Source: Rhizaria sp. SCN 62-66
Taxonomy: Eukaryota
NCBI GenBank assembly: GCA_001724265.1
Contig: MEDY01000101.1
Span: 62,001-126,000, forward strand
DNA length: 64,000 nucleotides
Direction: 5' to 3'
Shown here: positions 38,145 to 64,000 of the stretch, in pieces
Layout: each line of letters opens with the position of its first letter
Numbering within the stretch: the first letter of the stretch is position 1
Notes under the pieces: generated by a model
Databases searched by the model: none
What the model saw: the letters and a program-made list of their open reading frames with translations, nothing else
Told to the model about the DNA's origin: nothing
Translations under genes and position numbers: made by a program

Positions 38145-41100
38145 ATGTCGTCGCCGCCTGGCTGGGCGCCTCCCAAGACCAAGCTCAAGCTGGACTGCGA
38201 GGTGGAGCCTGTGCCGACCCTCATCGTCATCCGCACATCCTTTGAAGTCAACACAGAGGTCCTGGGTACGCTTAACCCCCAAACTCCCATGTTGCTGCTC
38301 GCATCGCTCTGCAACCTCTGCCTCTCAATAGCGGCTCTTGTTATTGCTGTTTTGTGCTTTTTGACATACATCACATTGTACATGTCCTCATTCTTGTGCT
38401 TTTTTGCTTCTACAGACCCCGAGGGCAACCCTACGGTGACACCCCAGGAGACCACCAAGCGCTTCAAGATGAAGGGCTTCCACCCCGGTACGTCTCCCAT
38501 TCACATACAACACAGCAAGCTAAATTCAGGCAAGCACAAGCTCGACAGTAGCGCCCAATATATGTTCCCTTGCTCACTTTGTATCCTGTCTGTATGATAT
38601 TCTTTGTGTCAATGCATTGCTTTGCAGGCTCGAGCTCCGAGAAGTTTGCTGCCGCCATCATCCCCAAGACGGACGGCCTCGTACGTCATATCCACTATTT
38701 TTGACTATTCATCACCCTATGTTATCAATATGTTGACGCGTCACCTGTATCTATGGCGTTCATCCCACTCCCCTTTTGTTCTGCACTGTTTTATCTCTCC
38801 CGACCAGATCCCGGCCAAGGGCGAGGCCGCTGTCATCCAGGTCCTCAACCGCCTGAAGACCAAGCTTGAGGCCGCGGGCGTCACGGCCCCGGCCCCCGCG
38901 GGCGGTGCCGCCTCCATGGCCTCGCCCACCGCGCTAGTCTCCCCGGTCGCGCCGACCCATCAGCAGCTGCAGCAGCAGCAACAGATGGAGGAGCAGCTTC
39001 AAGGCTACTACGGCTCCGGCGCCAGCTCCAGCAGCGGCGGCGGCGCCACGGCTCCGGCGCGACCCGGCGAGCTCAACGCCGCGCGCGCCCCCGCGGCCGC
39101 GGCACCGCGCACGGCCTACGACGAACAGGTCGAGGAGGAGCGCAAGCGCGCCGCCGCCGCCGCGCAGGCCGCCAAGGCGCAAGCGCAGGCCGAGGCGCGC
39201 GCCGCCGCCGCTGCCGCCGCCGCCGCCGCCACTACCGCACAGGCCTCCGCTGCCGCGTCTACGCGCTCCGCCGCCCATAGTGCGGGGGCGGGGGGCAAGA
39301 AGGGTAGCGACCTGGGCCCCGCGCCGCCGGAGAACAACTTCCAGAACTACGACTACTCTAAGTACGCCACGGGCTCCGCGGCGGCCGCGGCCGCGGCGGC
39401 GGGCTCGCGGCTGAAGCGCGCGCCCCGCGCGGCGGCGACGGAGAAGGCCAAGATCGCGAAACTGGATAGCTACCTGGAGGACCTGTACGAGGAAGACGTG
39501 GACAAGAAGATCCGTGCGACGGGGCTCATCCTGCAGCTCGTGCAGATGCCGGACCACCTGGAGAAGCTCGCGGGAAACCAACAGCTGACGTCTGCGCTTG
39601 CGCGCGTGCTGGTGGACGACCGCAAGAAGAGCATCGCGCTGACGACGAACATCCTCGAAGTGTTCTTCTGCTTTTCGTCCATCTCGCAGCTGCACGGCGT
39701 GCTGACCGCGAACAAGATCGGCAACACCGCGCTCAACGTGATCGACTTCGAGCTGATGCGCTACGACGCGCGCGTGCGCGAGGTGCGCAGCGAGAGCGAC
39801 TACCAGCGTCTGCAGGGCTACCTGTTCAAGCAGGAGAAACTGCTCTTTGTGTGCTTCTACATCCTGCTCAACATGTCCGAAGACATCATGATCGAGCTGC
39901 GCATCAAGCAGCGCAAGATCATCCCCATGCTCGTCACAGTGCTGGGCAACCACGACAACAAGGATACGAGCTGCCTCACGCACCTGCGTCTGCTCTGCGT
40001 CGCCTTCCTCAAGAAGCTCTCGCTCATTGAGGCTAACACCATCGAGCTCCAGCAGGTACGCTTTCATCCGCTTTATTGTAAGATGTTAATTTCACTTTAT
40101 GCTTGATACTGCCGAGTATCATCTTAATGTTATCTGTTGCTGCTTGTTCATTTGGTTGATTATTTTGCTCAAACTCTCTCCTTACAATGGCTCTGTTTGT
40201 TCCCATCTGTGTATAGTTCGAGATGATGCGCGTGACCCTGCGCTACGTGGCCCCGTCGCCGACCCCTTCGGATGACACGCTGTGCTCGGCACTGTTCCGG
40301 CTCACGCAGAATCTCGTGTTCAACCGCGAGTGCCGCGTCACGGCCGCAAACACGCTAGTCGGCCCCGCGGTCGCAGCGCTCCAGTACGTACAAAAGGATT
40401 ATTCTCCCTTATTACTACTCTCCCATTTTGTTGAGTGAAAAGTGAAATCGTTGCTAAACTCACTCTTTCTGAACTACATTCAATGATACCTTTGAAACTG
40501 ACTCACCTTGTTGTATTCGTGACGAACTTCTTCGCTGAAATTCGCACCATAGGCGTCCCAATTGCGCGACGGCAGCGGCGCGTCTGCTGTACATGCTGAC
40601 CACGGACCCGGCGCTGATGCCGGTCATCCAGCCGCACCTGGCCAACGCAGCGGCCCCGGCCATCGCGCTTGTGCTCCAGGCGCCCGGCTCCGTGACTAAT
40701 ATTGACGCCACGGCGCTGGCGATCAACATGTCGTGCATCCGCGAGCTGGTGCCGCTGCTGCTGCACGGCGGCGCGCTGCCCGCGCTCTTCTCGCGCCTCG
40801 AACACACCAACGACGTGTACGTGGCCAAGCTCATTCGCGCGCTCTCGGAGCACCGCGAGAGCCACGACGTGCTGGAAAAGTACGCCATGCGGATCGCCGA
40901 GATGGTGCTGCGCGGCGAGAACCCGGAGGTGCGGATGGAGGCGCTCGGCATCTTCGCTAACACGCCGCTCAAGAAGGTACGCACAGAATGAAACTCCTTC
41001 GAAAACAGCATAGATTACAGTTAATTATCTTGAACATTTGCTCATGGGGTGAATTTTATGTGGTATCTTTTGTTTTCGCCTTCTATTTTGCTGCTTCAGG

Positions 41101-42477
41101 AGGCGTGCGCGGAGCTCATGACCAAGTACCAACTGTGGGACTTCCTGATGCAGAATCTTGTCCCGACCCAGGACAACGACGACATCGCGATACAGGTCAT
41201 CATGCTACTGGGCAATCTGGCCGTGGACAGCCGCACATCGGGCATCCTCACCACGCCCAAGCTCGTCAACCTGCTCGACGAAAATCTCGCCAGTACGTCG
41301 CTGTCAATCCACCGTCATTCTCATCCACCTGCTGATTTATGGAATGAATAGCTTCAAATCGAATGAAAACCAATATTATTAGTGTTTATTGTATATGTAC
41401 TGTATCTGAGATCATTTTTTTCACACATTTTATCTGCTTCATTTGATAATGGGTTTTCTTTGTGTCTTTCCCCCAAGTCGCGGCCAAGGAGGGCGACTCT
41501 GAGATGATCCAACAGATCCTCTTCACCATCTTCCGCCTCCTGCAGCACCGCAAGTCACGCGAAGTCGTGTGCCAGATCCCCGCCATTCACGACCTCATCA
41601 TCACGTGCATCGGCTGGCCGCACCCGCTCGTGCGCACCTACGCCAACTCGTGCATGGACGTCATCCTGGAGCACCCCGTCACGCAGCTCAAGGAGGAGCT
41701 CATGAAGTACGTCACTACGCGCGATTTCGGCGATATTGAACTTAAATTCCACAGAAATTTGCAAAGTCTGAAACATAATATTGAGAAAATATGTTATCAT
41801 TGCTCACTCACACACAATGCTTTATCCTTTGTTTGTTTGTGTTTTGTTTAGCCGTCGCTTCGAGGTGTACAACGAGGCGTACATGGCCATCATCAGCGAT
41901 GGCGGGCTTGCAGACCTGGTTGACGAGTACGAGGAGGGCGAGCGCGCGCAGCTCGAGGCCGAGGCGTTGGCCGCCGACGCCAACGCGGGCCTCCACGGCC
42001 ACGGCGGCGCGGGCGGCGACTACGGCGACGACGACGGCGACGGCGAAGGGTTCGACTCCTTCTACGGCGACGGCGGCGGCCGGCTCGGTGGCTGGGGCAA
42101 CAACAGCGCCACGGGCGGCGGCGCGGGGACGACGAACCGGCGCGGCGTCTACGGCAACGGCTACCGCGAGGAGGAGGACAGTGGTGAGGACGACGATACG
42201 CTCGGCAGCGGCGCCAACTACGGGGACGACGTCGCGCAGGTCAGGGTACGTTAAACAGCCGTCAATATAGTGTGTATATGGTATATCATTACGAGCGCCG
42301 TTATGAACATATTGACATTATTTGAATGTCCGTCGATTCTGTGTCAAAACGTGCATATCTGTATTTTACATCCGACTTAAAACTCACCCTTAACAACTTG
42401 CAAACTGTGCTCCTACTTCGTGTTATGTTTGCTTGTAGTCGCTTGGTGGTGACAGCCGTGTGTCTCGCCGCGCATAA
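38145..42477 (+). CDS. KIFAP3: Kinesin-associated protein 3 (kinesin-II non-motor subunit, KAP3/FLA3), 10 exons, ~979 aa
   Basis: Exons 38145-38265, 38416-38487, 38628-38680, 38808-40055, 40217-40383, 40553-40976, 41100-41292, 41478-41706, 41852-42245 and 42439-42477 (TAA) are all phase-consistent with GTACG donors. Signature segments: LDSYLEDLYEEDVDKKIRATGLILQL..PDHLEKL..NQQLTSALARVL.DD.KKSIAL.TNI..VFFCFSS, and KQEKLLFVCFYILLNMSED. The last small exon is less certain. Confidence 0.92.
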
Positions 42478-43088: not shown

Positions 43089-46000
43089 ATGAGTGCGGAT
43101 GAGCCCCTTGGCTCGCCGCTCCCTGCGCTGGAGGTCTACAAGGTCCGTTTCGCTCCCGCTCCACTCGTCAATGCTATCTCCGTCCTCTCTTCTCTCGTAC
43201 TCCTGCCTGCACTCCTCTCACGTGCCCCTGCTCACACACCATACACTCCTGCGTCATTCACCTTATTGCCCCGGTACAGCGGCAAATTGTCGACCTCTTC
43301 GGCAAGACTCAGAACGAGGTCGTGATCCAGCTTGATGCCATCCTCAAGAAGCTCCGTTTCCAGCGTCAGCGCATCCCCAAGGAGAAGATTCACGACGAGG
43401 ACCGCTTCGACTACGCCCGCGCCGTTGCGCTTGTGTCGGCCGCCGTGCGCGACTCCTTTTTCGAGTGCCTCGAAACGCTCGTCGATCGCCAGTCGTCTGA
43501 CCTGGTCCGCACAAAGGTACTACAGATCTTCGTCGAGTTCGGCGCGATCGAGACGGCCGCGCAGGGCGAGCCGCCGTTCGGGCAGACGGCGCTGGCGTCG
43601 CTCGGCAATATCATGCGTTCATCGCCCGAGCTGCACACGCTCTTCATTTTCCAGTGCCTCAAGGAGCCCTTCACGGACATCGTGCTGAGCATGTCCGAGA
43701 CGTACCTGGGCTTCATCGCGCGCGAGCTGGCCGTCTGGACGCGCATGCGCCAGCACCAGCTCGAGCTTGCAGAGGGGCTCGGCGCGTGCGCGAAGAAGTT
43801 CGCCAAGGTGCATCAGGTGCTGCTGGACCGCGTGGAGCGGTTCTGGGAGCAGTCGAGCGAGAACGTCGAGGAGTGGCGCAACCACCGCGACAACAACGCC
43901 TTTAACGCGATCTCCCAGGTCATCACCTTCACGTGCAAGTCGCCCAATACGGCGCGCCGTTACCTGCCCGAGCTTCCGATCCGCCTCTACACCAAGATGG
44001 ACGAGTTCTCCCGTCTGCGCGGTGTGTACATCAAGAACCGGTGGATCTTCTCGCCCTTCCTCATGATGTCGCAGCTGGCAAACGCGTGCCCCGGCATCGC
44101 CGACTTCTTCGCCGGCCCCGTGTGGGACCGCAAGGTGGTCGAGCCCGAGCTCATGCGCTTCTACGAGCCCCTCGCGCCGGCGCTGATCAACCACCGGCTG
44201 ATGAAGCACCTGCTCGCGCAGCTCTCGCAGCTGCTCTGGGAAGAGCGTGAGTCGTTCGGTGAGCCCGCCGTGATGGCCTACTACGTGCAGACGCTCTTCT
44301 CCATCGTGCGCCACTCTGCCGCGGCCGCGAAGGAGTTCCTCACGGCCTACGGACAGCAGCGCGGTAAGATCATCGAGTCGCAGAACCGCAACGGCACGCT
44401 GTCCTTCTTCGCTGTGCAGATCCTGCAGCGCGCGCTTGAGTTCGCGCAGACGAGCGGCCCGCTCTGCAACGCCTGCGTGCAGGGCGTGGTGATGATTTGC
44501 GTGCCCACGCGCGGGCACGAGAAGATGTGGCAGGAGTTGCGCGAGGAGATGGAGAACTCGCTCTCGGACGTCGTGCGCATGCTGCAGGACATCTGCCAGA
44601 AGCTACTCACGACCACCGCGGACCAGCAGAGCGACGCGACGAAGGAGGCGTTGATCGGCGTGATCACCATCATGTCGACCTACAGCTCCAGCGCGCGTGG
44701 TCAGCTGTTCAACACGGAAATGGTCAAGAACTACTCCCGCGAGCAGATCATCTTCCGCGTGCTCTCGACCGAGGCCACGGCGACGGCGACCAACTTCATC
44801 GACGACGACGTGCGCCTCGCCGCCGCCAAGTGCCTCGTCGCGCTGTCCATCTCTAACTTCCAGCAGCACGGCATCCAGCACCTGCTCGACCTGTTCTCCT
44901 CGCTCCCGCTCGTCGTGTCGTCGACGCACTACGAAGTCATGTGTTACCTTACCTACTTCATGTTTAAGATGGCGCTGCACGAGGACTCTGGCGAGAGCGG
45001 CCGCGGCAACACCGTCGATAACAGCCCCGGTAAGGTTTTCCGCTCGCTGTACGCGCCCGAAATCTCCGCCACGATCTTCACGCTGCTGGAGCGGCTTGTG
45101 CTCGAGTCCGCGGCCGAACACGCCTCGTACTGGGAGCTCCGCTTCATGCAGGCCTGCGTCAAGTTCCTCATGGCCGGCGTACGTCTTTCTTTCATTCACA
45201 ATAATGGCATTGATATCTTCTTTTTTATGGTTTGCTTCTTATTATCATGTCAAATACTCTCACATCACATATTTCTTTAATCTTTTCTTTCATCCTCGCT
45301 CCTCCCCTACAGTGGGTCAAGATGGAGTTCCACGCTGACAACCTCGGTCTGCGCCCCATCGACATCTTGTCCGCGATCGTGGGCAAGGAGCAGAGCCGCG
45401 TGCAGCAGCTGGGCGTGATTTTCGAGGAGCGCAAGCAGCGCTACTACCGCCTCATCGAGCAGCGTCGCTGCGTTGTCTCCGAGGACGAGCTCATCGACCA
45501 CAGCGAGTTCGACAACAAGACCTACAAGCTGCCCGACATCCGCCTCAAGAAGTACGCCCACGTCAAGCTCTCGCGGCTTGACTACCAGCACGCCTTCCTG
45601 GAGCAGACCTCGCTGGGCGCGCGCGTATCGAACCTGCTGCCCGCGCTGGGCGAGCTGCGCCGCGTGGACATCGTGGCCTTCCGCCTGATCCATCAGCTGG
45701 CTAACGTCATCGAGAACGTCACTTTCGTCGGCTCCGTCACCACGCTGCTCGAGGCGGACTTCGCCGAGTGGAACAAGGTGGACCCCGGCAAGCCCGTCGC
45801 GCAGTGCGACGCCGACGAGCAGCCTAACTTCGGCGAGCGCTCGCTCACCGTCACGGCGCAGGGCAACTCGGAGCTGGTCGACATCCGGCCCTGCGCCAAC
45901 ACGCCCAGCGAAAACAAGGACATGTGCCAGCTCTTCGTCGCGTACCGCAATCTCAAGCTCGCGGACCCGTCGCCCGCGGACCTGGCCGCCGGCGTTATCA

Positions 46001-49000
46001 TGCCCGGCGTGGTCCTCTCCGAGCTCTGCAAGGACGACCGCAACGTCTTCCTCGTCGCGCGCGTGAACCGCACCGTGGTGGCGGCCGTCTTCGCGGGCCC
46101 ATACCTGACCCCGCAGCAGCAGATCGACTACACGCGCCGCAAGATCGCCGAGGCCGAGCGCCAGGGCCGCGCGTACGTCGAGGACCCGCACGACACGAGC
46201 GACCTGCGCAACGCGGCGCTAGTGACGGGCTACTTCCACAGCACTGAGCTCAAGGCCGAGCTGCGCATGGTGCAGGTCGAGCTCATGGCCGTGCTGTCGC
46301 ACCAGCTCTACACGCGCGGCTTTTTGCGCTGCTACTTTAAGGCCGACAAGGTCGAGCGCCAGATGCTCGGCGAGTCTGGCGCCGTGCTCGCCATGGCCGC
46401 CGACCCGCTGCTCAACGACGAGGAGGGCAAGAAGGGCGCCGTCGTCGCCAAGGATGCCGCCGCCACTGCGGCCGCCGCGGCCGGCGGCGCGGGCGACCTG
46501 GACGCCGCGCGCGCGCTGTTCCACTGGGACCTCAAGACCAACATCTGGCGCAAGAACAAGGAGCACATTTTCTTCATCAAGAACAAGATTCTCGAGTCGC
46601 TGCTGCAGCTGCTGCTTGACGACCAGAACAAGAACCGCGTCGATGACGCCAAGCGCGCGGGCAAGATCCCCTCTGTGCGCAGCATTGTGCAGCGCTTCAC
46701 GCCGCTGATCCGCATCAAGATGGAGGAGTACGGCGGCCAGCTCACCACCGAGTTCGAGGCCACCAACGCCGACGGCACCCTCCAGGCCTCGGCCTTCGCC
46801 AACGACGCTGACGACGACGCCGCGTCCTCCACCTCGGCCTCGGGCGCCGCGGGTCCCGGCGGCCGCCGCCGCGCCGAAGGCACCGCCGCTCGCAAACGCT
46901 TCCAGAACCTGGTCGAGCGCGAGTTCAAGAACGGGCTTGTGTCGGCTAACTTCCGCGTCGACGCGCCGGTCTGGGAGAAGGTGCTGGCGGGCTCCCGCGA
47001 GGAGACGCTGGTCGAGGCCATGACGCGCGTGTCGTCGTCGTCGTCCACGGCGCCGCAGCCGATGGTGGCGGCCGCGCTGCTGTCGCAGTTGCCACCCGAC
47101 CTTAACCCGCGCACGAACCCGGACCTGTGGCCCAACGAGTGGCTCGCGCGCGAGATGGAGGCCATCGCGCTCGACGGCATTGGCGCGGGCGCGGGCGCGA
47201 ACGCCAAGGGCGGTAAGCTGTCCAACATGACCCCCGAGGCGCGCCAGCAGCAGAAGGAAATTGAGGCCGAGATGCGGCGTCGGCGCGCGAACCTGCTGGA
47301 GCAGGAGGCGAACCGCGTTCGCGACGAGCGCGAGGCCGAGGCGCGGCGCAAGGAGTGGGACCTCCCGCCGCTGCTGCAGTCCTGGGTCGTGCCGTCGTCT
47401 GCCGCCGTGCTGCGCATGGTGCACGCGATGCTGACCAAGTCGCAGGGCGACGTCTTTCAGCAGGTGTGCACCGCGCTGCGCACTATCCCGGCGCAGGGCC
47501 TTGGGCTGCTCGAGGCCGTGCGCGCGACGCTGTCGTCGTTCCACTACCAGCTGCGCGCTAGCGTGCTCGACTCGCTGCCGCTGGCCAACTACAACGTCTG
47601 CATGAAGATTCTCCTCGTCATCGAGACCTCGCTCGTCGACGTCGCCGCCGGACTGGAGCCCGCGCTGGCATCGCTCGAGTACTTCGAGCTGTGCCTCGAG
47701 ATCGTCAAGGACATGGCGCGGCTGCTGCTCTCGCTGCTTGAGTCGCGCAACGCGGCCTACACGGCTGCGGCGACGCAGGGCGCGGCCACCGTGCCCAAGG
47801 CGCGCGTCAGCACCGTGGCGGCCAGCACCGACGGGCTCGACAACCTCGCCGACGCCGAGGCCGCCGCCGCCGCGGCCGCCGCCGCCGCGGGCACGGCCGA
47901 CGTCACGCTCGGCGGCGCCGGGTTCGAGTCCGTGGACAACGCGACGTCCGTGGTCGGCAAGGGCACGCTGGACCCCGCCGAGGAGCGGCTCATGTACGGC
48001 ATCTGCAAGACGCTCGTGGCGCTCATGTCGCAGGTCTCGCGCATCTGCCTCTTCAAGGGCTCGTCGTTCCTCATCGTCGAGGGCAACCGCAAGTGCCGCC
48101 AGCACGCGCAGCAGCAGCTCTTCACCAAGTGCCAGCTCATCTGCGACACCGTGCAGGCTATCCTGCTGTACGACCTCGAGAAGGAGAACGAGATGGACGA
48201 CACCAGCTCGGCCGCGACCGCCGCCGTGCTCGGCGTTGCCGCGGGCGCCAGCGCGGCCGGTGGCGACAAGGGCAACCGCACGCGTTCGAGCCACATCATC
48301 CGCGACAAGACGCGCGTGTATGCCGTCAACGTGCTGTCGTACTTTATCCACGTCGACCACGTGTTCCGCTACTCGTTCCTCAACGAGTACTCGGTCTCAT
48401 CGATCAAGGCCGAGCGCTCGCTGCGCGCGAGCATGATCCAGCAGGTGCTCGAGGGCGCCGACATGCTGCGTTTCCGCGACAAGCTCGAGCCGTACTTGCG
48501 CATCCAGCGCATCCTGCTGCAGGACGAGTTCATCATCCAGGTCCAGTTCTTCGAGCACTCGCTTGGCGCGCCCTACGGGGAGAACTACTCGGGCTCCAAG
48601 CTCGTGTTCGTGACCAACAAGGCCTATTATGTCTCCGCCACGGCTTTCCCTGAAGACACGGCGCAGAACATCAAGGACTTCACGACGCCGGACCGTCTGT
48701 CGCAATTCGTGCACCTGTCTCGCTACGACTTCTCCGACATCGTCCGCATCTACCGCGACATTTCGGGCCAGGTCATGGGCATCCGGCGTTTCTGCGACCC
48801 CGCGGCGGTGCGCATCCGCTCCACCACGATCCGCAAGCAGACTGACATCTTCCTGAACCGCACGCAGGGCGTGGTCGAGTCGTTCCTCACCGAGCTCTCG
48901 CGCCGCGCACGCGACGACGCGCACCGCGTGCACACGATCGCGCTCGACGAAGTCACGCCCGCGGCGCTGCCGTTCCTGTTCCAGGAGTGCCGCAGCGAGC

Positions 49001-49680
49001 TGTCGTCGTCGACGTACCCGAAGCTCATGACGCACGTGCATGTCATCAAGCGCGACAAGTCCGTGGTCAAGCGCGTCATGTCCTGGGTCTCAGTCGGCGA
49101 GGGCGGCGGCGACCAGTTCATCGTCATCACGCCCTACGACGCCAAGTCCTGGGAGCCGGCGCTGGCGGGCGAGGATGACGACGAGATCGTCGACGCCGGG
49201 CCCTGGGACCCGTCGCGCGTGCCGCGCCCGCCCGCGAACCGCGGCGGCAGCGGCGCGCGCGGCGTACGCGGCGGGCTCGACGACAAGGTCATCGACGCTA
49301 AGTCGGACCAGCTCAAGGCGATGTTCTCCGTCCCGGCGCCCAGCGCGCTGCCCGACTTCATGAACGCGCTGCCCTCGCTTCCCGTGGGCTCCTTCGGCGG
49401 CGCCACGCCCTTCTTCTTCCCAGTCACCGAGATCCAGTCCGTGGACTTTACCGAGGACTCCGAGGCCGAGATGATTATCCGCATCAAGCGTCTTGGTGGC
49501 AGCAACGACAAGGAGAAGCGCATCCCGTCCGTGTACATCAAGTTCGCCGACGACACGGGCCGCGAGATGTGGCGCCGCGAGCTCAAGAAACTCTTCTACT
49601 CCGGCTCCTTCGGCCGCTGGCAGGAGAACATCCTGCCCGACCTCTCCGACATGTCGCGCCGCAAGCAGGAGCTGCTGTGA
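43089..49680 (+). CDS. Large hypothetical protein (~2,106 aa): helical ARM/HEAT-like regions, possible GNAT-like insert, two C-terminal PH-like domains
   Basis: Exons 43089-43142, 43280-45178 and 45313-49680 (TGA); introns GTCCGT...TACAG and GTACGT...TACAG are both phase 0 and join the 652-aa and 1482-aa track ORFs. Third codon positions are strongly G/C. Domain calls are pattern-based only. Confidence 0.85.
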
Positions 49681-50416: not shown

Positions 50417-53400
50417 ATGTTGTGGTCGGTAATTTCTTTGGTGCTACCTCGCCTGGTCCACTTCTTCGGCCGGCGCGCCCTGAACAAGTACCTCGCCGCC
50501 CCGCTGCAGCCGGCACAGATCGCATGCTCCGTGACCGACGGCGTCCTCGCGCTGACGCTCACGCGCCTCGTCTTCGACCCTGACCGCATTAACGCGCTCC
50601 TGGCCGAGGAGAGCGCACAGGCGGGCCAGCCCCTGCGCCTGCGGCTGCTGTCCGCGGCCGTGGCGCGCCTCGCCCTCTCGCTCCCGCTGCCCGGCAGTGC
50701 GGCCCTCGCCGCCGGCACGCGCCCGCTGCTGACGCTCACGGGTGTGCGCTCGGAAGTCGAGCTGGCCACCGAGACGCCCGAGTCAAACCTTCTCGGGCTG
50801 GGCGCGGCGCGGCTGCTTGCGCGGCTGTCGCGGCCCGCGATGCGCCGCGCGCTGCAGAGCGCGCTGGCCGACATGCGCGGCGCCGACGATGAGGAGGGCC
50901 GCAAGATGATGACGGACCTCCTCAGCGTCATCCACACGGACTCCAACAGCAACTCCAGCGGCGGCGCGGGCGCTGGCAGCGGCAACAGCAGCGGCGCGAG
51001 TGCGGGTGAGGAAGACGAAGACGAAGACGAAGACGGCGACGGCGACGGCGTCAAGGCTGCGATGCGCAACAGCCGCCGCGGCGGCGACAGCGAAGCGGGC
51101 GTGCTGCCGCGCCTTGCCAAGGCTATCTTTAAGCAGGCCACACGCGCCACGTGCACTGTCAAGGACATCGTCGCTATTGTTCGTGTGCCCTCTCCTCGCG
51201 ATCTCGTTCCCGTCAACAACACTCCCAGTGGCCCCCAAGGTACGGCTGCGAAACCCGCGTCTGCCTCAGCCGCAACCGCTGCTCCGCAGCTGCTGCAGCA
51301 CGGCCCCGCGGCGCCGCTGCTCGGCGCTGGCGCCGCGCTGGCCGCGAGCGCGCCCGCGCCTAGCCAGTCTGCGCGCGCGCCCGACGGCTGCGCGGTGCGC
51401 GTCGCGCTAACCAGCGTGACCGTGCGCGACCCCAGTGCGCAGTCCAGGCGGCGCGGTCAGGCGCGCGGCAGCGGCGCGGACGACAACGGCGGCGACAGCG
51501 ACAGCGGCAGTGACGACGACGATGACGACGACGATACTGCGATTAGGTCGTATAGCAAGGCCCTGGAGCTGGGGCGCGTGACAGTGAGCATGGCGTCGCT
51601 GACGCGCACGCCGCACCGCGTGGTCTGGTGCTACAAACGCCGTCCGCAGCAACAGCAACCGCAGCAACAGTCTGCGGCAAATAGCAATGTGAACGCTGCA
51701 TCGGTAACTCCGATAGTCACACCTGTGCCCTCGGCGCCTGTAACACAGCAGGCTAACCTGAATGCAAGCGTGGGCGGTGGGATGCGCATTGGTAACAGGC
51801 CAAGTCTCTCTGCATCAACGGCCTATACCGCGAGTTCACCAGCAGCAGCTCCAGTCAGTGTTGTGACTTCGCCACCTGCCGTTGCTTCGACTAACAGTAG
51901 TGCCAGCGCCAGCACGACACAGACTCAGAGTCGCAGTGCGCTCGTTGTGTCGCGCCGCAGCGAGACCGTTGGCGGGCAGTGGGTGATGTCGCCGTTCCGC
52001 ACTGTTCTCGTGTTCGACAGCCCTCTGTCGCAACAGAAGCAGCAGCAGCATCCCGGCGCTGCGGTCAATGCAGACACTATCACGGTCGACTTAAGGCTTC
52101 CGAACCCGCACGTGATGCTTGCGCAGGACATCATCGCCGCGCACATTCGCAACAGCAGCAGTAACAACGGCAAGAGCAGCAAGACCAAGACGGACGGCGA
52201 GAGCGCGAACGCCGCTGTCATCGATGTTGTTGACAGCGACCCTGCTGCCGAGGGAGTCAACTCCACTGCGACCGACAACAACGGCAGCGCATTGCACGCC
52301 GCGCACGTCGCGGCCCGCAAGCGCGCGCAAGCCCAGTCTAAGCTGCGCTGGGCGCGCAAAGTGATGGCGCGCGCAGGCGACGACCCGCAGGCGTTCGAGG
52401 TGCGCATCGCGGCCGCGGTGCCTCCGGTGCTTGCGGTGCTCTCTCCACGCGAGGTCGAGCTCACCGTCGCGATGCTCGACAGGCTGAAGCCGCCGGCGAC
52501 GGCCGCCAACGTGGCCCACTCGCAGTCGTCGGACCCACATCAACACACAGGTGCTGCTGCGGCCAGTGTCACTCTCGCGAATGCCTTTGACGACGCGTTT
52601 TCCGATCCCGTGTCTGAGACCGATGCAATGACAGTAACAGCAGCGGCGTCCACGACCTTACCGAGTGCGCGTATCCTGCCTGTTGTGAACTTCTCGCTGG
52701 ATTTGCCGTGGCTTGAGGTTCGTCTGCTGCAAGAGAATGTGCCTCTTGCGGCGGAAGCAAAGTTGCGCCAGAATTCGAAGCAGGCAAAGCAGCAGCAGCG
52801 CCAGAGCGAGTTGCTGGCCAAGACCGCTCTCGCTCTCCCTAACATGGTATCGACTGCAGTCGCATCGCAGCGCCCTCTTGGAAATGGCAATAGTAGTGGC
52901 ACTGAGTCCAATGTAGGCCCGCTGAGTCAATTGCATGCGTTTGTACTCACCGCGTACAAGACCGCCACGACGTCTGTGCTTGCGCGTCATGTTTTTGCCG
53001 CGGCCGCGACAAACAAGACCAGCGCCGGCGGCGTCAAAGCCCAGGGAACTCGCCGTCACCGCGACGCTGCGTCAATCAACCTCATGCGTGCCACAGCCAG
53101 TGCCCGCGCTATTATGGGCGAGGCGGGGCACGCCTTAAGTGCGGCTGCGAACAACAGCGCAGTCATGACGACCGATAAGTTTCTCGCGCTATTTGCCGCC
53201 CGCTTCCCCTGGGCACCGTCTACCGACTATGTCGCTGTGTCGGTCGCGGGTGGTGCTGTGCTGTCACAACGCGTCGTTTGCCACCGCGCAAACGCCAACA
53301 CGGACGCGGCTAATCTGAATACGACCAGTGCGAAGGCTAGCGAGCCTGACATCATCGGTATCCGGTCTGCACTCACGTTGTCGCTCACTGCTCTCACGGT

Positions 53401-56400
53401 CACTGAGTCGCTTGCTGTCTCGTTCTACCCAGTTTACCCTGCTAAAGTTCCTGCAGCTACCAACAAGGCAAGCGCTGCGAACACAAATGCTGCAAATGGT
53501 GCGAAGCAGGGGCGTTTTTATGCTCGGTACCATGGGCTCACTGCAGCGATCACCAACAGTCACACCGTGAGCAATCCCGCGACCGCTGAGTTTGTCGGAG
53601 CGAAGACAGAGACTGCGCGTGTTTACCGCGTGCCCGGTCCTCGCCGCACTCTGTTCACGGTCGACTCGTCATACACTGCGGCCAACCGCGCGCGCTCGCA
53701 CTCACTTCTCTCTGCGGCCGCGCCCGCACACTTGCACAGCGCCGTCCCTGTCAGTGCCCACAGCAGCAGTGCGAATCAGGGCGAGGTTGCGACAGTCTAC
53801 GCGGCGTGGTTCTCTACCTCGGCTCTTGCTCTCGCGCTCGCCCCGCGCCTCGTGCTCACTCGCACCGCGGTCGACGCCACCGGCGTGAACGCGAGCGCCG
53901 CCGCGCTGTCTCTGGAGTGCCACCGCCCCGCCGGCGGTCTGGCCCGGACCGTCGCGCCCGCCGCGCCCCGCGCCGCGCACTGGCAGCCCGACCGCGGGCT
54001 TCCGGCCCCGACGCGCGCCGGCGCCGCGCTGATGACGCACGAGCACCCCGCGGACCGGCTCCCACTGGCGGCGCAGCGCGCGCCGCTCCGCAGCACCGTC
54101 GCCGTGCTGGTGCGGCCCGTGCGCGTCGAGTTCGACGTGGGGCTCGTGGACCGCATCGACAGCATCATCGCCGCCATGGACCCGGTGACGGACTCCGCTG
54201 AGCGTGAGGCCAATGCGAATATTGCCTAGTCGGCTGCTACGGCTGCGGCTGCGGGCCTCTCTGGTTATGCGTGCGGCGACGGTCAGTCTGTCGTGTTGGG
54301 GCTTGACTCGGCGGCGGTTAACAGCTCTGCCTCCACGGCAACAGGCCAAGCCGCTGCGAAGCTGAGTACGCTGGCGACTACGCAGTGGCGCAGCAGCAAT
54401 TACATTACTGGCGCTGACTCCGATGGCAGCAGCGTGATGAGTGAGATGACAGCGCTCATGTCGACCCTGCTCCCAAGCACGAGCGCAATTAATAACGTGA
54501 ACGTCGCTGCGAACCCGAGTAGCACTGACGCTAACGGACGCGCGCTGTTGCAGCCTGACGTCGCTGGTGTCCTGGCCTCAGACGCCACGGCGTTGGGCCA
54601 CGCAGTGCTCGCGCTTGCGCTCCCGCTCTCTGCGCTGCCCGCCACTGTGGCATCGCTCGCCGCCACCGACTCTGCCGCGCAGGCCCGCGCTGCTGCCGCG
54701 CTGTCCGCCGCCCGCAGCGCCCGCGCTCTCGCCAGTCACGGCCACCCCGGCTCCGCCCCTGCTGCGCGCGCGCCGGCGTGCGTGCCGTACAGCGCGCTGT
54801 CCGTGCACTGGGCGGTAACTATGGACGCGATCACCGCGCGCATCACCGCGCCGGCGACGCGCCTCACGGTTTCCCCCCCGGCCGCCGGCGAGGTGACGCC
54901 GCTGGAGCGCGCCATGCACGGCGCAGTGTGCGCCGGTGTGGCGATGTTGGACACGGCCGCCGCGGTGGATCTGGCCGCGAAGCACGTCTCCAAGGTTGCG
55001 CAAGCGCTCTCTGTGCAGCAGAACAATCACGCCAGCGCAAGTATGAGCGGGAACTGCTTGCCTTTGGACCGTGCGATGGCGCCGCTCTCTGTGCTTGAGT
55101 CTACGCTCCGCGACTCCTTCGGCGCCAACGCGCGCGATCGCAGTGGATTCAACTCCCTGTTCGGCTTTGCTGACGCGTTCACTGCGTACGACGCAGCGGG
55201 CACGCCGGTGCATCCGCCGCGCTCTGTGTGGGTGTCGCGCGACCCGCTCACCGCTCTCTCCGGCCCCAGCTCCTTGCTCGCGCTGACGGCTGCGCACGCT
55301 CCTGGCGATGTGAGTGTGAAGCCGCTGCTGCTGGTGGGCCTCGACCGCCGCGGTGTGCAGCGCGAGCGCGAGTGGCTCGAGGTCGAGCTGGCCGCGCTCA
55401 CGGTCACTTCACGCGTGCAGAAGGCCGATGACGCGCTGTGGGGCGATACGACCTCTTCTGTCAGTGCGTCGAACGCCCCGCTGTTCCCGCCTCTCGTGGC
55501 TGCTGTGAGCGCTGCGAGCTCCGAGAGCGCGCGCCGTACAAGTGGCGTTCACGCGTCCGGCCCCGCTGCTTCGCAGCCACAGCAACAATCGCATACGCTG
55601 CCGCCCGCTGCAGCTGCTGCCAAGGCTGTCTGCGACGCGCTGCTTGCCCGTGCGCCCCAGTTTGCGCCGTCCATTACGCTTGACGCCAACGCCGCTGCTG
55701 ACGCACTGCGCGCACAGTGGATCCAGGGCAACAGCGGTGCGGCCGGTGCGGGCACCGTCGTTGTGCTGCCGGACTCGGTCGCGACGCGCATGCCTGTCGC
55801 TGACTTTGGCACTGAAACCTCGTGGTCATTCCTTCAATCTCCCATGAATCCCGTCAGCGTCAAAAGCAGTAGCAGTGGTGAGACGCCCAGCTCAGCTGAC
55901 GCCGTGACCGCGGCGGACCTGGCCGAACGCTTTGACTGGGCCGCGCTCAGCGCTCTGCTCTACGCGCCGCTGGCCTCGGCGCCCGCCGCGCGCCCGCGCG
56001 CGGGCCCCTACGCCGCGCTGCTGGCGAGCGCGCGCCGCCTGTGCGCCACGGCCTCCATGCCTGCGCTGGCGAGCGAGTGGGCCTGCGACCGGCCCGCGCT
56101 GCCGCACGCCGCGCCCGCGGTTGTCAGCTCGCCGCCGCCGGTAATGGCGTCCGTCGTGCTGCGCTTTGCGACCGCGAAAGTGTACTTGGTGACGGACGCT
56201 GCGCTCGCGAAAGACACGCCCGCTGCCTTTACCTCTGCGTGGGCCTCAGCATCAACTGTTGCTGTTAGTGCGAGTGCGGCGAAGCAGCCTGTGTTGGTGC
56301 GCAAGTGCATTGCAACGGTTGCGTCCGTCCTTACAGTCAACGAGCTCAGTCGCCGCTCTAAGCAACAACAGCACAGCGCGCCTCCCGCGTCGGCCATGAG

Positions 56401-59400
56401 TAGTCGCGGCACCTCGAGCAGCGGCGTGAGCCATAGCGAGCTCGCCCTGCGCGCCGTCGCCGTCGACGACGAGGTCGCGAGCCCATCCATCGTCATCTCG
56501 CTGCCACCGCGCGCCGCCGTTGACCCCGCGGTCTGCGCGCAGTGGGCGGAGCATTCCCGCGAGCTCTGGGCCGGACTCGTCTGCGCCGCGGCCGCTGCGG
56601 CTGCGAGCGTCATTGTCAGTGGCAGTGCCGACGGCTGGGGCTGTTTTGTTCCTCTTAACACCGCAAACGCGGCGCCTCACGCGCACGGCCACGGTCACAG
56701 TCACGGTCAGCAGCAAAAGGCGCGTCGCAGTTCTGTGGCCGAGAGCTCACCCAACAAAAACACGGTGTCCAACATCAGCAGCAGCAGCAGCAACAGCAGC
56801 AGTACTAGCTCTGCGTCTGCTGCGGCGAGCGCTCTGACCGCCGCGTCGCTGGCGTGCGCGTCGGGCAGCCTGCTCCCTGTGCCCACGGCCAACGGCACCG
56901 GCGCCCCGGGCGTGCCCGTTGCGCTGCTGCCCTCCGACGAGTCTTCGCAGGACCCGCTGCCGCTGCCGCGGGACGGCCCCGCCGCGGCGGGCGTCTCGGG
57001 CGCCGCGCTGCGCCGCGTGACCGACGTCGTGCTCTTCTCCGAGGGCTACGATGCCGTCGCGCTCGCCGCCGCGGCCGCCGCTGCCGCCCCCGGGGCTGTC
57101 GCGCGGTCCGCTGCGCGCGCGGTGCTGGCGCAGCTCCCGCCGCCGCAAACCGCGGCGCGCGTGTTCCCGCGCCTGTTGCTCGCCGGCGCGCTGCGCAGGG
57201 ACGCCGCCCGCGCCGCCGCCGCCGCCTTGGACAGCGCCGCCGCCGTGGAGGCGCTGCGCACCGGCGCGGCCGCGAGTCTGCTGGCCCGCGCGCGCGCCGC
57301 CGCCGCGGGGGCGGAGACGCTCGTGACAGTGACGCTGTCGTCGTGCTTGGTGGACCTGTCGCAGCGCGAGATGGCGCTGGTGACCGAGCTCTCTGAGGCT
57401 ATCTCCGAGGGCAACGGGTACCTGATCACGGACCCCGCGCTCGCCGTGCACACGGCGGTCATTCGCGCACAAGGTCCCAGCTCGACTGGCAACTCTGGCT
57501 CGACCGTTGATGCAGATGTTGCGGCTGTGACTGCGCTGGCCACTGCGCACTTGGGTGTTGTTCGCTGGGCATCCTCCTCTTCAACCAACGGCGACGTGAA
57601 CACCAACAGCTCTGCTGCTCGCGACTCTGCTGCTACTGCTCCGGAGGGTGGGTTCCTGCGCAGCCGCGTGCAGGCGCAGTTTGCTGACTGGCTGTCGAGT
57701 GTCTTCCGTGAGCGCCAACGCGTCGCCCGCGCGTCCGCCGTTGCAGCAATTGTGGCCATGCTGTTCACGTCCAGCGAACGTGAATTCGAGTCGGCTGGAA
57801 TTGACGCCACGATCCACGCGCGCGCTCTTCTGCATCGCCTGCGGGTCGCGTTGGGGTCCGCCACGTCCTCTGACACCTTGAATGTCGACATCAGGACCGC
57901 GCTGCAGTCGGCGGTGTACGGCGTTGACATCGATCTCTCACAGCTCCCTCTGTTTGCCATCAACCCCCACATCGCAACATCTTCGAACGTCACGTATTTC
58001 ACCAAAGTGCCTGAGTCGGAATCTGTCGCACCTGCCCCGGTTCTTGCTGCGCCTACTCCTACTGTTGCAAGCTCCGACGTGTATGGAACCAGCGGTCAAA
58101 TTGGCGGCGATGATGAAGAAGACCCTGACGCGGCCATCATGGCGTTGCACCGCGCCACGAGCCCTGAAATCGGTCCCAACTCCCTCGCCGCGCTGCCTCT
58201 TGCCGCCCCTGCCCCTCTTCCCGCCGCGAGTGCACCTGTTACGATTGACTCCGCTTCTGTCTCTGCAGCTCCTATTCCCACTCGTGTCGTACTCCCAACT
58301 GTCACTCTAGCTCAGACCGTAGATGCGAGCGCGAGCGCCAGTCCGGAGAGCATTGCTGCGCTCGTCTCCCGCTTTCTGTCCGACTTCGCTCTGCCGCCCG
58401 CGCTCGCGCCCATTCTCGCCCGCTCCGCGACGCTGCCCCTGCGCGCGCCGCTGCATGCGCCGGCGCGCCCCGCGGCGCCGCTCACGGCGCAGTCCGCGCT
58501 CGCGGGCCCCGCATCGAGCCGCGCGGCCCTGGCGCTTACACCGCTAGCGGTCACCGCGCTGCTGGGCGACGCGGCCGCGGTCCGCGCTCTGCTGCAGGCC
58601 GGCGCGCGCCCCGGGCCCGCGCTGGCTCTGCTGGCTTCAGCGCTGCTGCCGTTCGCCGCCCCCTGGGCTGCCGCTGCGAGCGCTAGTAACAGTGCGGACA
58701 CCACCGTGCTGATGAGCGAGGCCGACGGTGCCGCGACGCTGCGCGCGTGGCTCGTCCGCGCCGATCAGGACCCCGTCGCCGCGGCCGCGGGCGTGGCGGG
58801 CGCCGAGGCCGCCGTGCCGGGCGCCGTCGCCGTCGCGCGCGAGCTGCTGCGATGGCTCACCGGCGCTGGGTTCGTCGACGTCGCTGATGACGAGGTCGGC
58901 ACTGTGTACGACAATGGCAGCGCGGGCAGCAGAGGCAAGGATAGCGATAGCAGTCAGGACGATGGTGACGACGACGAAGCCGATGATGGCGCGGAGGATT
59001 TGAGTCGGTCGTCGTGGGGCGGCAGCAGCTCGAATGACTTATTCAGCTCGATTGTCCCTGGTTACAACGACAATACTGATGCTGGAACCGGCGACGCCGA
59101 CAGCAGCGCTCAGGCGCCGACTTCAGTCACGAATGCATCGAGTACCAGCAGGAGCCGTCTTGAGCAGTCACTCTACATGAGCCTTGCAGATCCCTCCGCT
59201 TCTGCTTCAAACATCAACAATGACGGATCTCTTCAGACAGATATCACTTCTGACGCGCAATCATTGGTTGTGACGCCTGAACTCTCTGCTGCTGCGCTAG
59301 CAACCGCGTTCGTGCGCTCCTTAGGCTCCGCCGGCAGCAGTCTCGAGCAGACCCTACTGCTGATGGCTGCTGTCAGTGGGACGGACAGTGAGCGTGACGG

Positions 59401-62400
59401 CGTTGCTGCGAACAATGGTCATGAACGTAACGGCGCTCTAGCTGCTCTTCGTGCGCAAATTGAGGCCTCGCTGCAGCAACACACTGTGATTGACGTTTAC
59501 AACACCAACACCGACAACGACAATGCACGTGACATGTCCGCACTGCTGCACCGCATGGTTTTACGCCATCTTGATTCACCAAGCAAGATTGGTTCCGCTG
59601 CAGCGCTTGGGCCTGTCTTTGCGCCCTCGCTGTCGAATGCAGCCCCCTCCGGAGGTGACCGCATTGTGGAGTGGTCTTGTGTCGACTTGACGCTGCCATC
59701 CGCGATCACTTCGCTCTCCAGCACCGGTTCTCATGGTGGCGGTGCAAGCGATATCAGTGTTACTGCTACCCCCGGTGCGTCTCTGCTTTGCGACGTCGCG
59801 ATTGTCGCGCGCACCGCAGCTGCTGCCTCAATCCCTCTTGTGGCGAGCGCGGAGGGTGTAGATGCTGCGGCTGCTGCCGTGGAGTCCGCGGTGTCCGGCG
59901 TAATCAGTCTGTACTCACCGGCACCTGAGACGGGCGTGTTGGCGCTGCCCGAGTCTGACGCAGACGCTGGCTCTAACACTAGCACAGACTCCGTGAGCAA
60001 GAGTGATACTGACAGTGATAGTGATGAAAGCGACAACGGCAATGTGCTCGCAGTCAGCAGCTCCCGGGCCGACACGTTGTGGCTCGAACTCGCTCTCAGC
60101 GCCGCCACCGCCGCTGCGCACGGTGTATTCGCCTCGCTCACCGCGACTGCGCAACTCGCGATCGAGGCTGCGCGAAACGGCACCGTGCCCAATGATCTTG
60201 CTGACGCCGTTTTCACTGCAGCTGACAGCGAGCTCAACGCCACGACTGAGGGGTCGAGCAGTAGCGAGCAACAAAGCGAGAACATTGTTGAGTTCGTGCT
60301 GATGGCGAATCCTGGTATGAGTGCGACCGCGTTGCTCCGTCACGCGCACATTCCCTCTCACGCTCGCGGCAACATGCAATCAGGCTCGCAGGCACAGACG
60401 CAGACGCAGAGTGCACCGGTCGATTCAGTTTCTGCGCAGACGCAGTTCTCGCCGTCCCCTGCGCCGGTGCAAATCAAGCGCGGCGGCCGCCACAAGATGC
60501 ACCTGCGTCTGTTCTGCCACACCGGCCTCGTCGTCTTCCACCAGTCGCCGCAGGACCCGGCCTCGTTGGGCTCCCTTGGCAGCAAGAGCAAGGCCAAGGG
60601 CGGGGCCGGTGTCGGTGTAACAGAGCCGGCGCCGGTGCGTTCGTTCGCGCTCGATCTCGCACAGCTTCGTGTCGCAGTGACGTCCCGTGTTTACGGACTT
60701 TCCGGCAACACTTCTGCCGCCGCAGCCCCAGGGAACGCTTCGACGGCCGCCGCCACACCGACGGTGGGCAGCAGCAGCGCCGACGCGCACGCGCACCCTG
60801 GCGCGGACACCCCCGCGTCTGGTTCGACTGTCGAGGTCGCGATCTCGGCCGGTGACGCGGTGCTGCGCGAGTTCGTAGCGTGCCTGCACCAGGGCGCCAA
60901 GGCCTGGCGGCAGATGCAATCGCGCGTGCGCCGCAGCTCGGTCATCGCGCAGAGCAGCACAAACAGTGCGAGCTCTCGCCACAGCTCCGGTGCTGCGTCG
61001 AATGTTGTCACTATGTTGAATGTGCCGCCTGTCCCCTACAGCGAGCTGCTGTGCACGCCGTCATTCCCCGTCCTCGCGCGGCTCTCCGAGGCCACCGAGA
61101 CAACCGGGAGCCACAGCACGTCAGCGAGCACAGTCAGCGTCTCCGGCATTCACCTGCGCACCTCAGCGCGTCTTGCGGCCACCATCGCTTCTGCGACTCA
61201 CAACACCGTTGACGGCGCCGAGTCGCACCGCGGCACCGACCCCAGCGAGGCCGAGGTCAGTGCGCGCGTCACTTCCGCGGCCGCCGCCGCCGCTGGACTT
61301 GACTTCGCGAACTCCGGCGCGGGCGTGACCGTGCCGAACCCCGTTCTTGCGCTGTCGCCGCGCGCGTGGAGCCTGAGTCCCGTGCTCACGGTCACCATCG
61401 CCATGGGGCCCGGCTGGGGCAAGAAGTCGCTCGCCGTGCCCACGGTCATCTCGCTCACCCGCGACAACGCCAACGCCAGTGCAAGTGCGAGTCCCAATGC
61501 CGGTGCATCTGACGCGGTGACCGTGAGCACCCCGGCGGTGCTTGTGGCGACCGTGGCCGACGTCGTTGCCTCTGCCAACACCGCCGCTGCGGCCGCGGAC
61601 GCCGCTGCGACGGCCGTGGCCACCGGCGTGACGACCGTACTTGCCCCCGCGGACTCTGCAGGGGCCCCCGCTGCGGCGCCTGAGACGTACTCGCTGCAGC
61701 GCAGCATCCGCGTTCCTGTGGTGTCGTCCAAGATCCGCGTGTTCGCGAGCAACCTCGCGTACTCGCACCCCGAGCCCACCACGGACTGGCTGATGGCGCT
61801 CATCGACGTGCTCGCGCCTTCGCAGCCCGCCGCGCCCGCCTCCGCCGCGGCCGCGACCGCCGCGGCGCGCGCGTGGGGCCGCGCGCTCAGCGGCAACAGC
61901 ATCAGCAGCACGGTGGCGAACAGTCTGGTGGCGTGGCGTGTGGTGTTTGACGACTCCGCGCCCCTCGCCCGCAGCGACGACGCGGCGGTCGCGGTGGTCA
62001 AGCAAGGCTTTGCCTGGCCCCGCGCCGCGTCGGCCTGGGCCACAGTCGCCGCGACCGTTGTCCCTGCATCACAGTCTCATGACAGCGCTGCGCAGACGAG
62101 CGAGAGCACCTCGGGATCAGCGCCCGCTGCTGTTTCCTTGGCTGCCAGCGTTATCGGTATCTCTGGTAGCTCGAGTGCGCAGGCACAGCAGGCGGTTCAG
62201 CACCAGTCACATCTACAGTCGCAGCTCGCCTTCGCCACTGGTGACGCCTCGCGCCGCCTGCTTCCCTGGCTCCCGCCCCCCGCTCTGCCCTCGACGCTCG
62301 CGCCCAGCTCCACCATTAGTGGCCGCTTCGCGTCTGTGGCTAGCCCGCCTAGCGTGCGCTACACAGTCACCGAGATCGCGGTCCGCGTTTCCGACTCGCT

Positions 62401-64000
62401 GCTCGACTATAACCCCGCCAACGCGGCCGGCCGCGCCGCGCTGCGCGTCGGGCTCGTCACCGTAGACCTCGCCAAGCAGCGCCAGCGCGCCGCTTGGCGC
62501 CTGCCCCAGTTCGCCACCGCGGCCGCGCTCGCAGCCGCCAACGACAGCACAGCGCCCAACAGCAGCGCCAGCAGCGCTGCAGCCCTGGCGGGTGGTGCTG
62601 TGGCGGGCGCGCTCACCGCCGCGCTGCTGCCCGGCGGCGCGGGCGAGCTGACCGCGGCGACCTCTTTGGGCGGGCTCGCGCTCACGGTCACCGCGCGCGG
62701 GCTCGCGCTACACGTACTCGACAGGGCGCAGAAGACCGGCTTTGCCGCCGTCGCGCCTGTGCCGGACTACCTGCCATGGCGCAAGCACGGGCGCTTTACT
62801 TCACATAACATCGCAGGTGTCAACGCCGGTAGCAGCAGTAGCGCTGCACGCAGCGTGAACACTGCGGCGAAAACCGCCGAAACTGCTGTGAATAAGCCGT
62901 TCTTGAACCAATACCAGCAGCAACAGCAGCAATCCCAGCAGCAGACCCTCTCACCCGAGCCCTCGGCCCCGGACGCGTCTGCGTCAGCCCTCGCGGCAGA
63001 CGCCGCAGTCGCCGACGCCTTCGGCGGCCTCGCGTCCGGCCAGGAAGCGCTGGCCCGCGACGTGCGGCGCTCTCTGCCCGCGGCCGTCGTGTCCCGCGCC
63101 GGCGAGGACGAGGAGGCCGCGTCAGACCCGCTGCTGCGGCCGCCACGCGCGCGACAGGGTCCCGCGCCGGTGTACGTGCCGTGGGCGCTCGCGCTGCTGC
63201 GTGCACGCGCCGAGGCTGTCGCCGCCTGTGCTCCCACTGGCCTGTACGTGTCGTGCCTGACGTCGCCGTTCCTCGCAGCCGTGCCGCGCCCGCGCCTGCT
63301 GCTGCCCGTCAGCGACAACGATGCGGGCAGCGCGACGGCCGCGACTGCTGCTGCGGCCGAGGACGCGACGGTGAGCGACTTCGTGGGCGCGTTCCTGCGC
63401 TCGCACTGCTTCATCAAGGTGTTCACCGTCGCATCCCTCTCGGTCTCCGTCGACAGAGAGCCCGGATGCGACTGCAACGGGGCGGACTCGGGCGCCACCG
63501 CAAAGGACACAGGTAGTGCGAGTGCAAGTGCTGACGGTAAATGCGGGTGCAATGGCGCGTGTGATGAGCGTCGCTACGACGTCGAGTCCGGCTGGAACTA
63601 CGCGACTCAGGTTACAGACCGGCTGAACCGCTACATCTCCGCTCTGCAGCTCGCGCGCGTCACCTCCACCAGCGCGAATAACACCGCGCCCGCGCTTGTG
63701 CTGCCGCTGTGTCTGTACTCGCGCGACACCACCGCGGCGCTGACCCCGGCCGCGGAGAGGCTGTTCCCGCCCGCCGCGCCGCCCGCGCCCGTGACGGCGC
63801 TGTCGCGCGTGCTCGCGCTTGCCTCCGAGGCGGGCCTCTCTGCACCGATGGGAGCCGCGACGTCGGCGGCCGCGGCGCACTGCAACGCGGTAGCCGTGGG
63901 CGCGACCTGCGTCAGCGCCGCCGCGGTGCTGCTCGGAGACATGGCACGCGCTCTCGGCCTCAGCAGCAGCGCGGGCACTGCGACGGACTCCGCAGCAGTG
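50417..64000 (+). CDS. ATG2: ATG2-like (chorein-N/VPS13 superfamily) lipid-transfer protein, >4,528 codons, 3' end beyond window; one in-frame TAG at codon 1271
   Basis: The N-terminus (LPRLVHFFGRRALNKYLAAPLQPAQIACSVTDGVLALTLTRLVFDPDRINALL...AAVARLALSLP) resembles the ATG2 chorein-N domain. VRPVRVEFDVGLVDRIDSII just before the TAG resembles an ATG2 ELDxSxxDRLxSLL segment. After the TAG the same frame encodes DWLMALIDVL (~61784-61813), TEIAVRVSDSLLDYNP (~62369-62416), ARGLALHVLD and FIKVFTVASLSVSV, in the order recalled for central ATG2 blocks. No stop seen from 54230 to 64000. Confidence 0.75.
54227..54229 (+). other. In-frame TAG inside the ATG2-like CDS (candidate recoded/readthrough codon)
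   Basis: GCG AAT ATT GCC TAG TCG GCT GCT ACG: coding-like composition is unchanged across the codon and 3,257 further codons are open. Confidence 0.7.

Follow-up and report, generated by a model that had tools for sequence, protein, structure and literature searches.

Does an in-frame TAG codon end the product of a very long gene, or is it read as an amino acid? This question is raised by a 64,000-nucleotide stretch of the Rhizaria sp. SCN 62-66 assembly GCA_001724265.1 (contig MEDY01000101.1, positions 62,001 to 126,000 of the forward strand), here called the window and numbered from its first letter. Two of its three giant genes hold one in-frame TAG each: TAG 1 lies in a gene with features of lipid-transfer proteins, and TAG 2 lies in a gene for a giant helical-repeat protein (Table 1). 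Each of the two codons continues the reading frame of a long, otherwise intact gene, and splicing signals are lacking at either site. Taking all such readings together, we consider that TAG is probably translated. It may well be a rare sense codon, most likely for glutamate, with TAA and TGA still acting as stops. An earlier sequence-only reading had proposed translation on the basis of TAG 1; TAG 2 and a degraded element in the window add support to this proposal, and its argument from ATG2 proved weaker than stated.

TAG 1 closes the stop-to-stop frame 50252-54229 and is codon 1271 when numbered from the ATG at 50417. As had been noticed from the letters, it splits a longer frame: the coordinates hold, and downstream the frame continues without a stop for another 3,257 codons, up to the window end. 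The motifs quoted with that observation (DWLMALIDVL, SLLDYNP and LALHVLD) are indeed all downstream of TAG 1 in its frame. Within the 600 flanking bases, the codon-usage score of this frame was 0.65 bits/codon before TAG 1 and 0.67 after it, and the other frames around the codon scored from -0.20 to +0.09 bits/codon. Homology names no residue at this position, because TAG 1 sits in a low-complexity linker. When 8,000 candidates between 421 and 1,341 residues long were searched for orthologs around TAG 1, the sole match was the 1,270-residue product of the window itself, and the lipid-transfer locus had no match in metagenome contigs.

The repeat gene, whose TAG 2 lies 39 kb from TAG 1, gives the strongest evidence on the meaning of TAG, and it points to glutamate. 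It starts at 15214 and runs for 5,035 codons before leaving the window. Its product exceeds 5,000 residues and consists of a helical repeat of about 45 residues with the core D-x-x-L-x-A-A...D-x-x-E-L-x-D-T-L, to which no Pfam family corresponds. A profile search of 1.84 billion cluster representatives found 56 relatives, some of which weakly match a death-effector domain profile. When the repeat profile was rebuilt without the window's protein, it drew on 354 copies, to which 52 of the 56 relatives contributed, and the copy containing TAG 2 matched this independent profile at E 7e-13, with signal flanking the codon on both sides. In the column facing TAG 2, where 347 of the 354 copies have a residue, Glu accounts for 59% and Asp for 30%, followed by Ala and Val (2% each) and Gln and Lys (1% each). 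Substitution scores at TAG 2 were 39.7 bits for Glu, 39.0 for Asp, 36.4 for Gln, 33.5 for Leu and 32.4 for Trp. Leu, the residue of UAG in the rhizarian exLh, and Trp, the outcome of adenosine-to-inosine (A-to-I) editing, are therefore poor candidates. Moreover, the relative P0107 (61% identity) has Glu facing TAG 2, the alignment of P0116 spans both the exon join and TAG 2, and GAG differs from TAG by one base. An alignable column was found for one of five TAGs only, namely TAG 2; for the other four, no homologs were found. For a test at one position of the window, 14931-14929 is the better choice, rather than 54227, which had been favoured before.

The six gene models (18,461 codons) contain two in-frame TAG, no TAA, no TGA and no frameshift, which are small numbers. 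TAG is by far the rarest codon, the next being ATA (13) and AGA (14), and the three strongly codon-biased genes have none. Only four gene ends lie in the window (TAA, TAA, TGA and TGA), and none of this small set is TAG. The next base after each of these four true stops is a purine; after TAG 1 and TAG 2 it is T, and both of these codons have CC immediately before them. No tRNA gene was found in the window, and no repeats bearing on TAG 1.

Relatives of the organism were sought with TRAP1, which is encoded in the window; among metagenome contigs, 80 loci matched, and six of these were examined. The TRAP1 of L001 is 85% identical, is sister to that of the window in the tree and ends in TAA. L002 is more distant (TRAP1 64%), and ten of its genes or last exons end in TAA (seven) or TGA (three). 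TAG gene ends thus number zero of four in the window, zero of one in L001 and zero of ten in L002, for which p is 0.035 if the TAG share is 20% and 0.21 if it is 10%. In L002, TAG seems to be missing from both roles, as stop and as sense codon. Named matches of TRAP1 and of the kinesin-associated protein (KAP) are distant (brown algae, bacteria and insects), the TRAP1 tree places the lineage no more closely than within one TRAP1 clade, and the KAP gene had no match in genome contigs.

The degraded AT-rich element between the giant genes provides three further TAGs. Its 328-codon frame is longer than those of all 300 simulations (maximum 303). Random nonsense in this element would be TAG only in about 35-38% of cases, which gives p of about 0.04-0.05 for three TAGs and no other stop. 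The surrounding region (15640-17290, + strand) carries two or three frameshifts, one of them in a G run near 16320. Searches of Pfam, PHROGs, NCBIfam and PDB with the element gave nothing significant, and it had no match in genome or viral contigs. Some of its motifs may resemble those of OTU/Ulp1 proteases, with no library match.

The letters of TAG 1 are supported by independent data. Thirteen runs from bioreactors, wastewater and sludge share words with the window, and four of them hold at least half of the words. Four of the thirteen (X3, X4, X5 and X8) were compared over 52500-56500, and X5-X11, which share small word fractions, were left out as habitat evidence. In run X3 (study P2), a contig covering 53984-56367 at depth 6.3 bridges TAG 1 with zero mismatches. 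In run X4 (study P3, library kind unknown), a contig covering 54151-54434 at depth 3 bridges it unspliced, also with zero mismatches. Thus the codon is TAG in DNA contigs of two further studies as well, not the CAG or GAG that had been named as grounds for giving up the idea. In addition, the identical 1,270-residue product occurs in a protein collection, on a 29.7-kb contig. TAG 1 is therefore real and genomic, and an error of sequencing or assembly at 54227, for which one could cite the low depth (3-6) of the independent runs, is highly improbable and largely refuted; the letters of TAG 2 are known from the assembly alone. TAG 1 is outside the coverage of X5 and X8. In the polyA run X8, exactly matching pieces flank TAG 1 at 53671-53844 and 56283-56500, at low depth and possibly from DNA. 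One substitution is listed in 4 kb, a synonymous A>G at 54064 in X4 (third position of a CCA codon), and with one substitution over this length the samples amount to about one clone. Further strain variation consists of one residue change in P0162, in KAP exon 4. Public runs from wastewater and bioreactors contain this uncultured protist repeatedly between 2015 and 2025.

The identity of the gene around TAG 1 matters here, because it had been argued that ATG2 homology brackets the codon and that termination at codon 1271 should be non-functional. The homology was not confirmed. The search of the read-through translation that had been proposed as a check gave no Pfam family, and neither did the pre-TAG and post-TAG halves; across 43 sub-windows there was no ATG2 or VPS13 Pfam family (no match to Chorein_N/VPS13_N, ATG2_CAD or ATG_C). 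Four PDB sequence searches returned no ATG2 or VPS13 chain, and NCBIfam was uninformative on ATG2 identity. Structure prediction was likewise uninformative: a single-sequence fold of the N-terminal region reached pLDDT 51, with no Foldseek match at E<=0.001, the best Z in the VIA fold comparison was 6.0, on a helical hairpin, and a model of the central region reached pLDDT 38. The quoted motif blocks presumably resemble ATG2, which is a lead only. In ESM-Atlas, the N-terminal part scores 0.93-0.94 to VPS13_N, BLTP3 and ATG2 clusters, a match of low recognition value, and codons ~3200-4530 score 0.83-0.87 (lead level) to BLTP1/Hobbit/Csf1/VPS13 clusters, none of them ATG2. Judged from these language-model features, both sides of TAG 1 look like the bridge-like lipid transfer superfamily at large. 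Compared with the repeating-beta-groove bridges ATG2, VPS13, SHIP164, Hobbit and Tweek, as described in the accessible text of PMC7613979, the window gene shares these features in both halves and a great length reached through low-complexity inserts; it differs in having no Pfam domain match, and its C-terminus lies beyond the window. The functional argument is also weakened. Human ATG2A residues 1-345 rescue ATG2A/B knockout cells; the rescue is almost complete when expression is ten-fold and partial at the endogenous level, according to the portion of PMC6548141 available. Hence an N-terminal product of 1,270 residues could still function.

In accordance with a translated TAG, we infer three things: that the codon is read, that the residue is Glu (from one column), and that a tRNA is responsible. 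The lineage would have stopped using UAG for termination and would now decode it as Glu. A tRNA-Glu with a CUA anticodon may outcompete or replace release-factor recognition of UAG. Decoding may be inefficient or recent, and the rarity of the codon would fit a reassignment that is still at an early stage or works inefficiently, so that mobile DNA and large genes with weak codon bias tolerate UAG. Read-through of TAG 1 would then yield one unbroken lipid-transfer protein exceeding 4,500 residues, and that of TAG 2 the full repeat protein. Tentatively, we propose a more specific form: UAG means Glu while UAA and UGA are stops, and the change is still young, UAG having disappeared from gene ends, also in L002, and having reappeared in few sense positions.

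Several observations weigh against translation of TAG. Its sense use is not widespread, with 2 TAG against 720 GAA and GAG in the six genes. In the 14,495 codons of the giant genes, a free synonym for Glu or Gln would be predicted about 85-230 times, given that first-position synonyms occur here at 0.3-0.7 times the frequency of their partner codons, and TAG occurs twice; it is thus 40-100 times rarer than a freely used synonym. In published UAG-only codes, UAG makes up 6.5-31.8% of the codons of its residue and occurs in 78-91% of genes, in the part of PMC11687900 available. The finding that both codons are TAG is uninformative, because a nonsense change arising at random in these genes would produce TAG in about 60% of cases. 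Moreover, the Glu column at TAG 2 is equally expected from a GAG-to-TAG nonsense mutation, and in six other copies of the repeat in the same protein this column holds Glu in two and Ala in three, with one unaligned. The element has frameshifts and hence is decaying anyway. As the samples are near-clonal, the presence of TAG 1 in three studies shows no conservation, and no RNA contig spans TAG 1 or TAG 2. Since a truncated ATG2A can work, TAG 1 alone proves little. Finally, L002 has no TAG in 5,033 codons, where two apparent TAGs were counted as intron acceptors (CTCTAG), and the 741-codon TRAP1 frame of the AT-rich relative L005 has none, so that the code is not common to the clade.

Other readings of the two TAGs have to be weighed against these data. 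Each TAG could be a 3′ splice site and be removed with an intron of 45 or 105-126 nt at TAG 1 and of 205 nt at TAG 2. Both sites do read CCTAG, in-frame GT donors lie upstream of TAG 1, and a 205-nt alternative from the real donor at 15133 to TAG 2 keeps the frame. Sixteen introns were modelled in four of the six genes; their lengths are 109-193 nt, their donors are GTACG (14) or GTCCG (2), and their 3′ ends are T-rich. In leave-one-out scoring, their donors reached 6.3-14.2 bits and their acceptors 1.0-22.4 bits. The proposed acceptors score -9.1 at TAG 1 and -21.4 at TAG 2, the donor of the 45-nt candidate scores -10.6, no in-frame donor within 400 nt of TAG 1 exceeds 1.8, and splicing to TAG 2 would remove the conserved core of the repeat domain. 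The 45-nt candidate, which had been raised as a possible objection, falls far under every modelled intron and is ruled out on sequence, so that the reading stands on this point. TAG 1 is probably not spliced out, as judged from these scores, and splicing as an account of both codons is very unlikely. We assign a similarly low probability to two separate genes or a split lipid-transfer protein, of which the first part ends at TAG 1 and the second begins at ATG 54437. In-frame ATGs 70, 73 and 77 codons past TAG 1 would permit this, and they call for a correction of the earlier statement that no new gene start lies there. The accompanying claim of no AT-rich spacer holds: there is no promoter-like spacer ahead of these ATGs, and the 207 intervening bases (54230-54436) are coding-like with a GC content of 64%, unlike five measured intergenic stretches with 42-47%. 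A split gene would also leave TAG 2 unexplained.

The main rival is that the code is standard and that TAG 1 and TAG 2 arose recently as nonsense mutations and became fixed in a clonal lineage. In this case, the lipid-transfer gene would be dead or make a 1,270-residue N-terminal product, and the repeat gene would be dead or restart at a later Met. We regard this as less probable than translation and yet as a serious contender. It would account for the scarcity of TAG, TAG is the most easily reached stop here, it agrees with the near-identical sequence over three studies and with relatives that have no sense TAG, and the rescue by ATG2A 1-345 shows that a short product may suffice. A single stop, intact flanks and near-identical strains are also what nonsense alleles in clonal genomes show. 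Against it, two independent knockouts among six adjoining genes would be needed, no second lesion is seen in 8,233 downstream codons, and two such alleles per 64-kb window without a frameshift in six models would be a heavy load. It also leaves unexplained the three TAGs of the element with no TAA or TGA, and the lack of TAG gene ends. Another account keeps TAG as a normal stop genome-wide and has TAG 1 and TAG 2 bypassed locally by leaky, context-dependent readthrough or by RNA editing of the codon. Both sites read CC-TAG-T, a coincidence with a chance of about 0.02 that was noticed post hoc; CCTAGT occurs only three times in the window, and the purine after the true stops fits this account too. 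CARYYA and CTAG are stimulatory 3′ readthrough motifs, and the bases after TAG 1 (TCGG) and TAG 2 (TTCC) are neither. In addition, the 3′ structure is no better than that of shuffles (z +1.5 and +2.0), A-to-I editing would give Trp, near the bottom of the scores at TAG 2, and the three TAGs of the element are each followed by A. Local bypass is therefore unlikely.

A translated TAG can be compared with known variant codes. When UAA or UAG is reassigned, the other nearly always is as well, and the exceptions that keep UAA as a stop use Leu, Gln or Ser, as far as the accessible text of PMC11687900 goes. Codes of this UAG-only kind occur in the rhizarian exLh (Leu) and in Iotanema spirale (Gln), according to the available sections of PMC5304391, and in phyllopharyngean ciliates (Leu, Gln) and Scotinosphaera (Ser), according to those of PMC11687900. 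The window shares with them that the in-frame stops are TAG alone and that the observed gene ends are TAA and TGA alone. It differs in the indicated residue, which is Glu, in that no suppressor tRNA is seen, and in abundance: exLh has 384 TAG in 71 genes, in the same sections of PMC5304391, against 2 in 18,461 codons here. Because sense use is not widespread, we do not class the window as a member of the UAG-only group, although it works like one. Glu is the meaning of UAG in Oligohymenophorea sp. PL0344, where UAA is Lys (accessible part of PMC10553269); UAR is Glu in peritrich ciliates, and Glu or stop in Blastocrithidia. UAG at Glu columns is common to these systems and the window. In all three UAA is also a sense codon, whereas TAA ends two of four genes in the window and never occurs in frame; the window's genome is GC-rich, with GTACG introns of 109-193 nt. 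In the literature searched, which left most subscription papers outside, no report was found of a nuclear code with UAG as Glu and UAA as stop. If true, this would be a further nuclear code, and a codon under-used 40-100-fold beside relatives that seem to lack TAG would allow codon capture and an ambiguous intermediate to be tested against each other in mid-reassignment. The recurrence of the organism in public runs from 2015 to 2025 means that existing reads suffice for the test. If the TAGs are nonsense mutations instead, they mark an ordinary pair of broken genes.

Table 1. Features of the 64,000-nucleotide window, in window positions
Feature	Position	Strand	Remarks
Exon 2 of the giant helical-repeat gene	1..15024	-	4,976 open codons past TAG 2; extends past window start; 14 profile matches
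TAG 2	14929..14931	-	codon 59; context CCC-TAG-TTC; within repeat domain; Glu/Asp column
Intron of the repeat gene	15025..15133	-	109 nt; GTCCG donor, CTAAC branch-like site, CCAG acceptor
Exon 1 of the repeat gene	15134..15214	-	27 codons; homolog P0116 aligns over exon join
Degraded AT-rich element	16304..17290	+	328-codon frame; TAG at 16397, 16445 and 17042; no TAA or TGA before TAA end
Sushi/GPS membrane protein	18873..33668	-	4,932 codons; no internal TAG; ends TGA; control
TRAP1/Hsp90	34479..37765	-	4 GTACG introns; ends TAA; control
Kinesin-associated protein (KAP)	38145..42477	+	9 GTACG introns; ends TAA; control
2,106-residue protein	43089..49680	+	no significant Pfam family; 2 introns; ends TGA; control
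Lipid-transfer gene	50417..64000	+	intronless; at least 4,528 codons; one internal TAG; extends past window end; superfamily from ESM-Atlas features alone
Proposed 45-nt intron GTGACG...GCCTAG, rejected	54185..54229	+	donor -10.6 bits, acceptor -9.1 bits; 58% GC
TAG 1	54227..54229	+	context GCC-TAG-TCG; Ala/Asn/Ser-rich linker; identical letters in X3 and X4 contigs
Open stretch after TAG 1	54230..64000	+	3,257 codons; frame kept; coding-like usage; no spacer

The neighbouring control genes show some features of their own. The Sushi/GPS gene is intronless and encodes 4,931 residues in a polycystin/adhesion-receptor-like layout. The gene for the 2,106-residue protein is strongly codon-biased and adjoins the KAP gene. 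The GTACG donor is unusually uniform (14 of 16 introns), and GTCCG is confined to two first introns. TRAP1 of L001, the closest relative, is intronless, whereas that of the window has four introns. The L002 contig (1-20795) is gene-dense and carries a short GGTTCCAAA tandem repeat at ~465-530.

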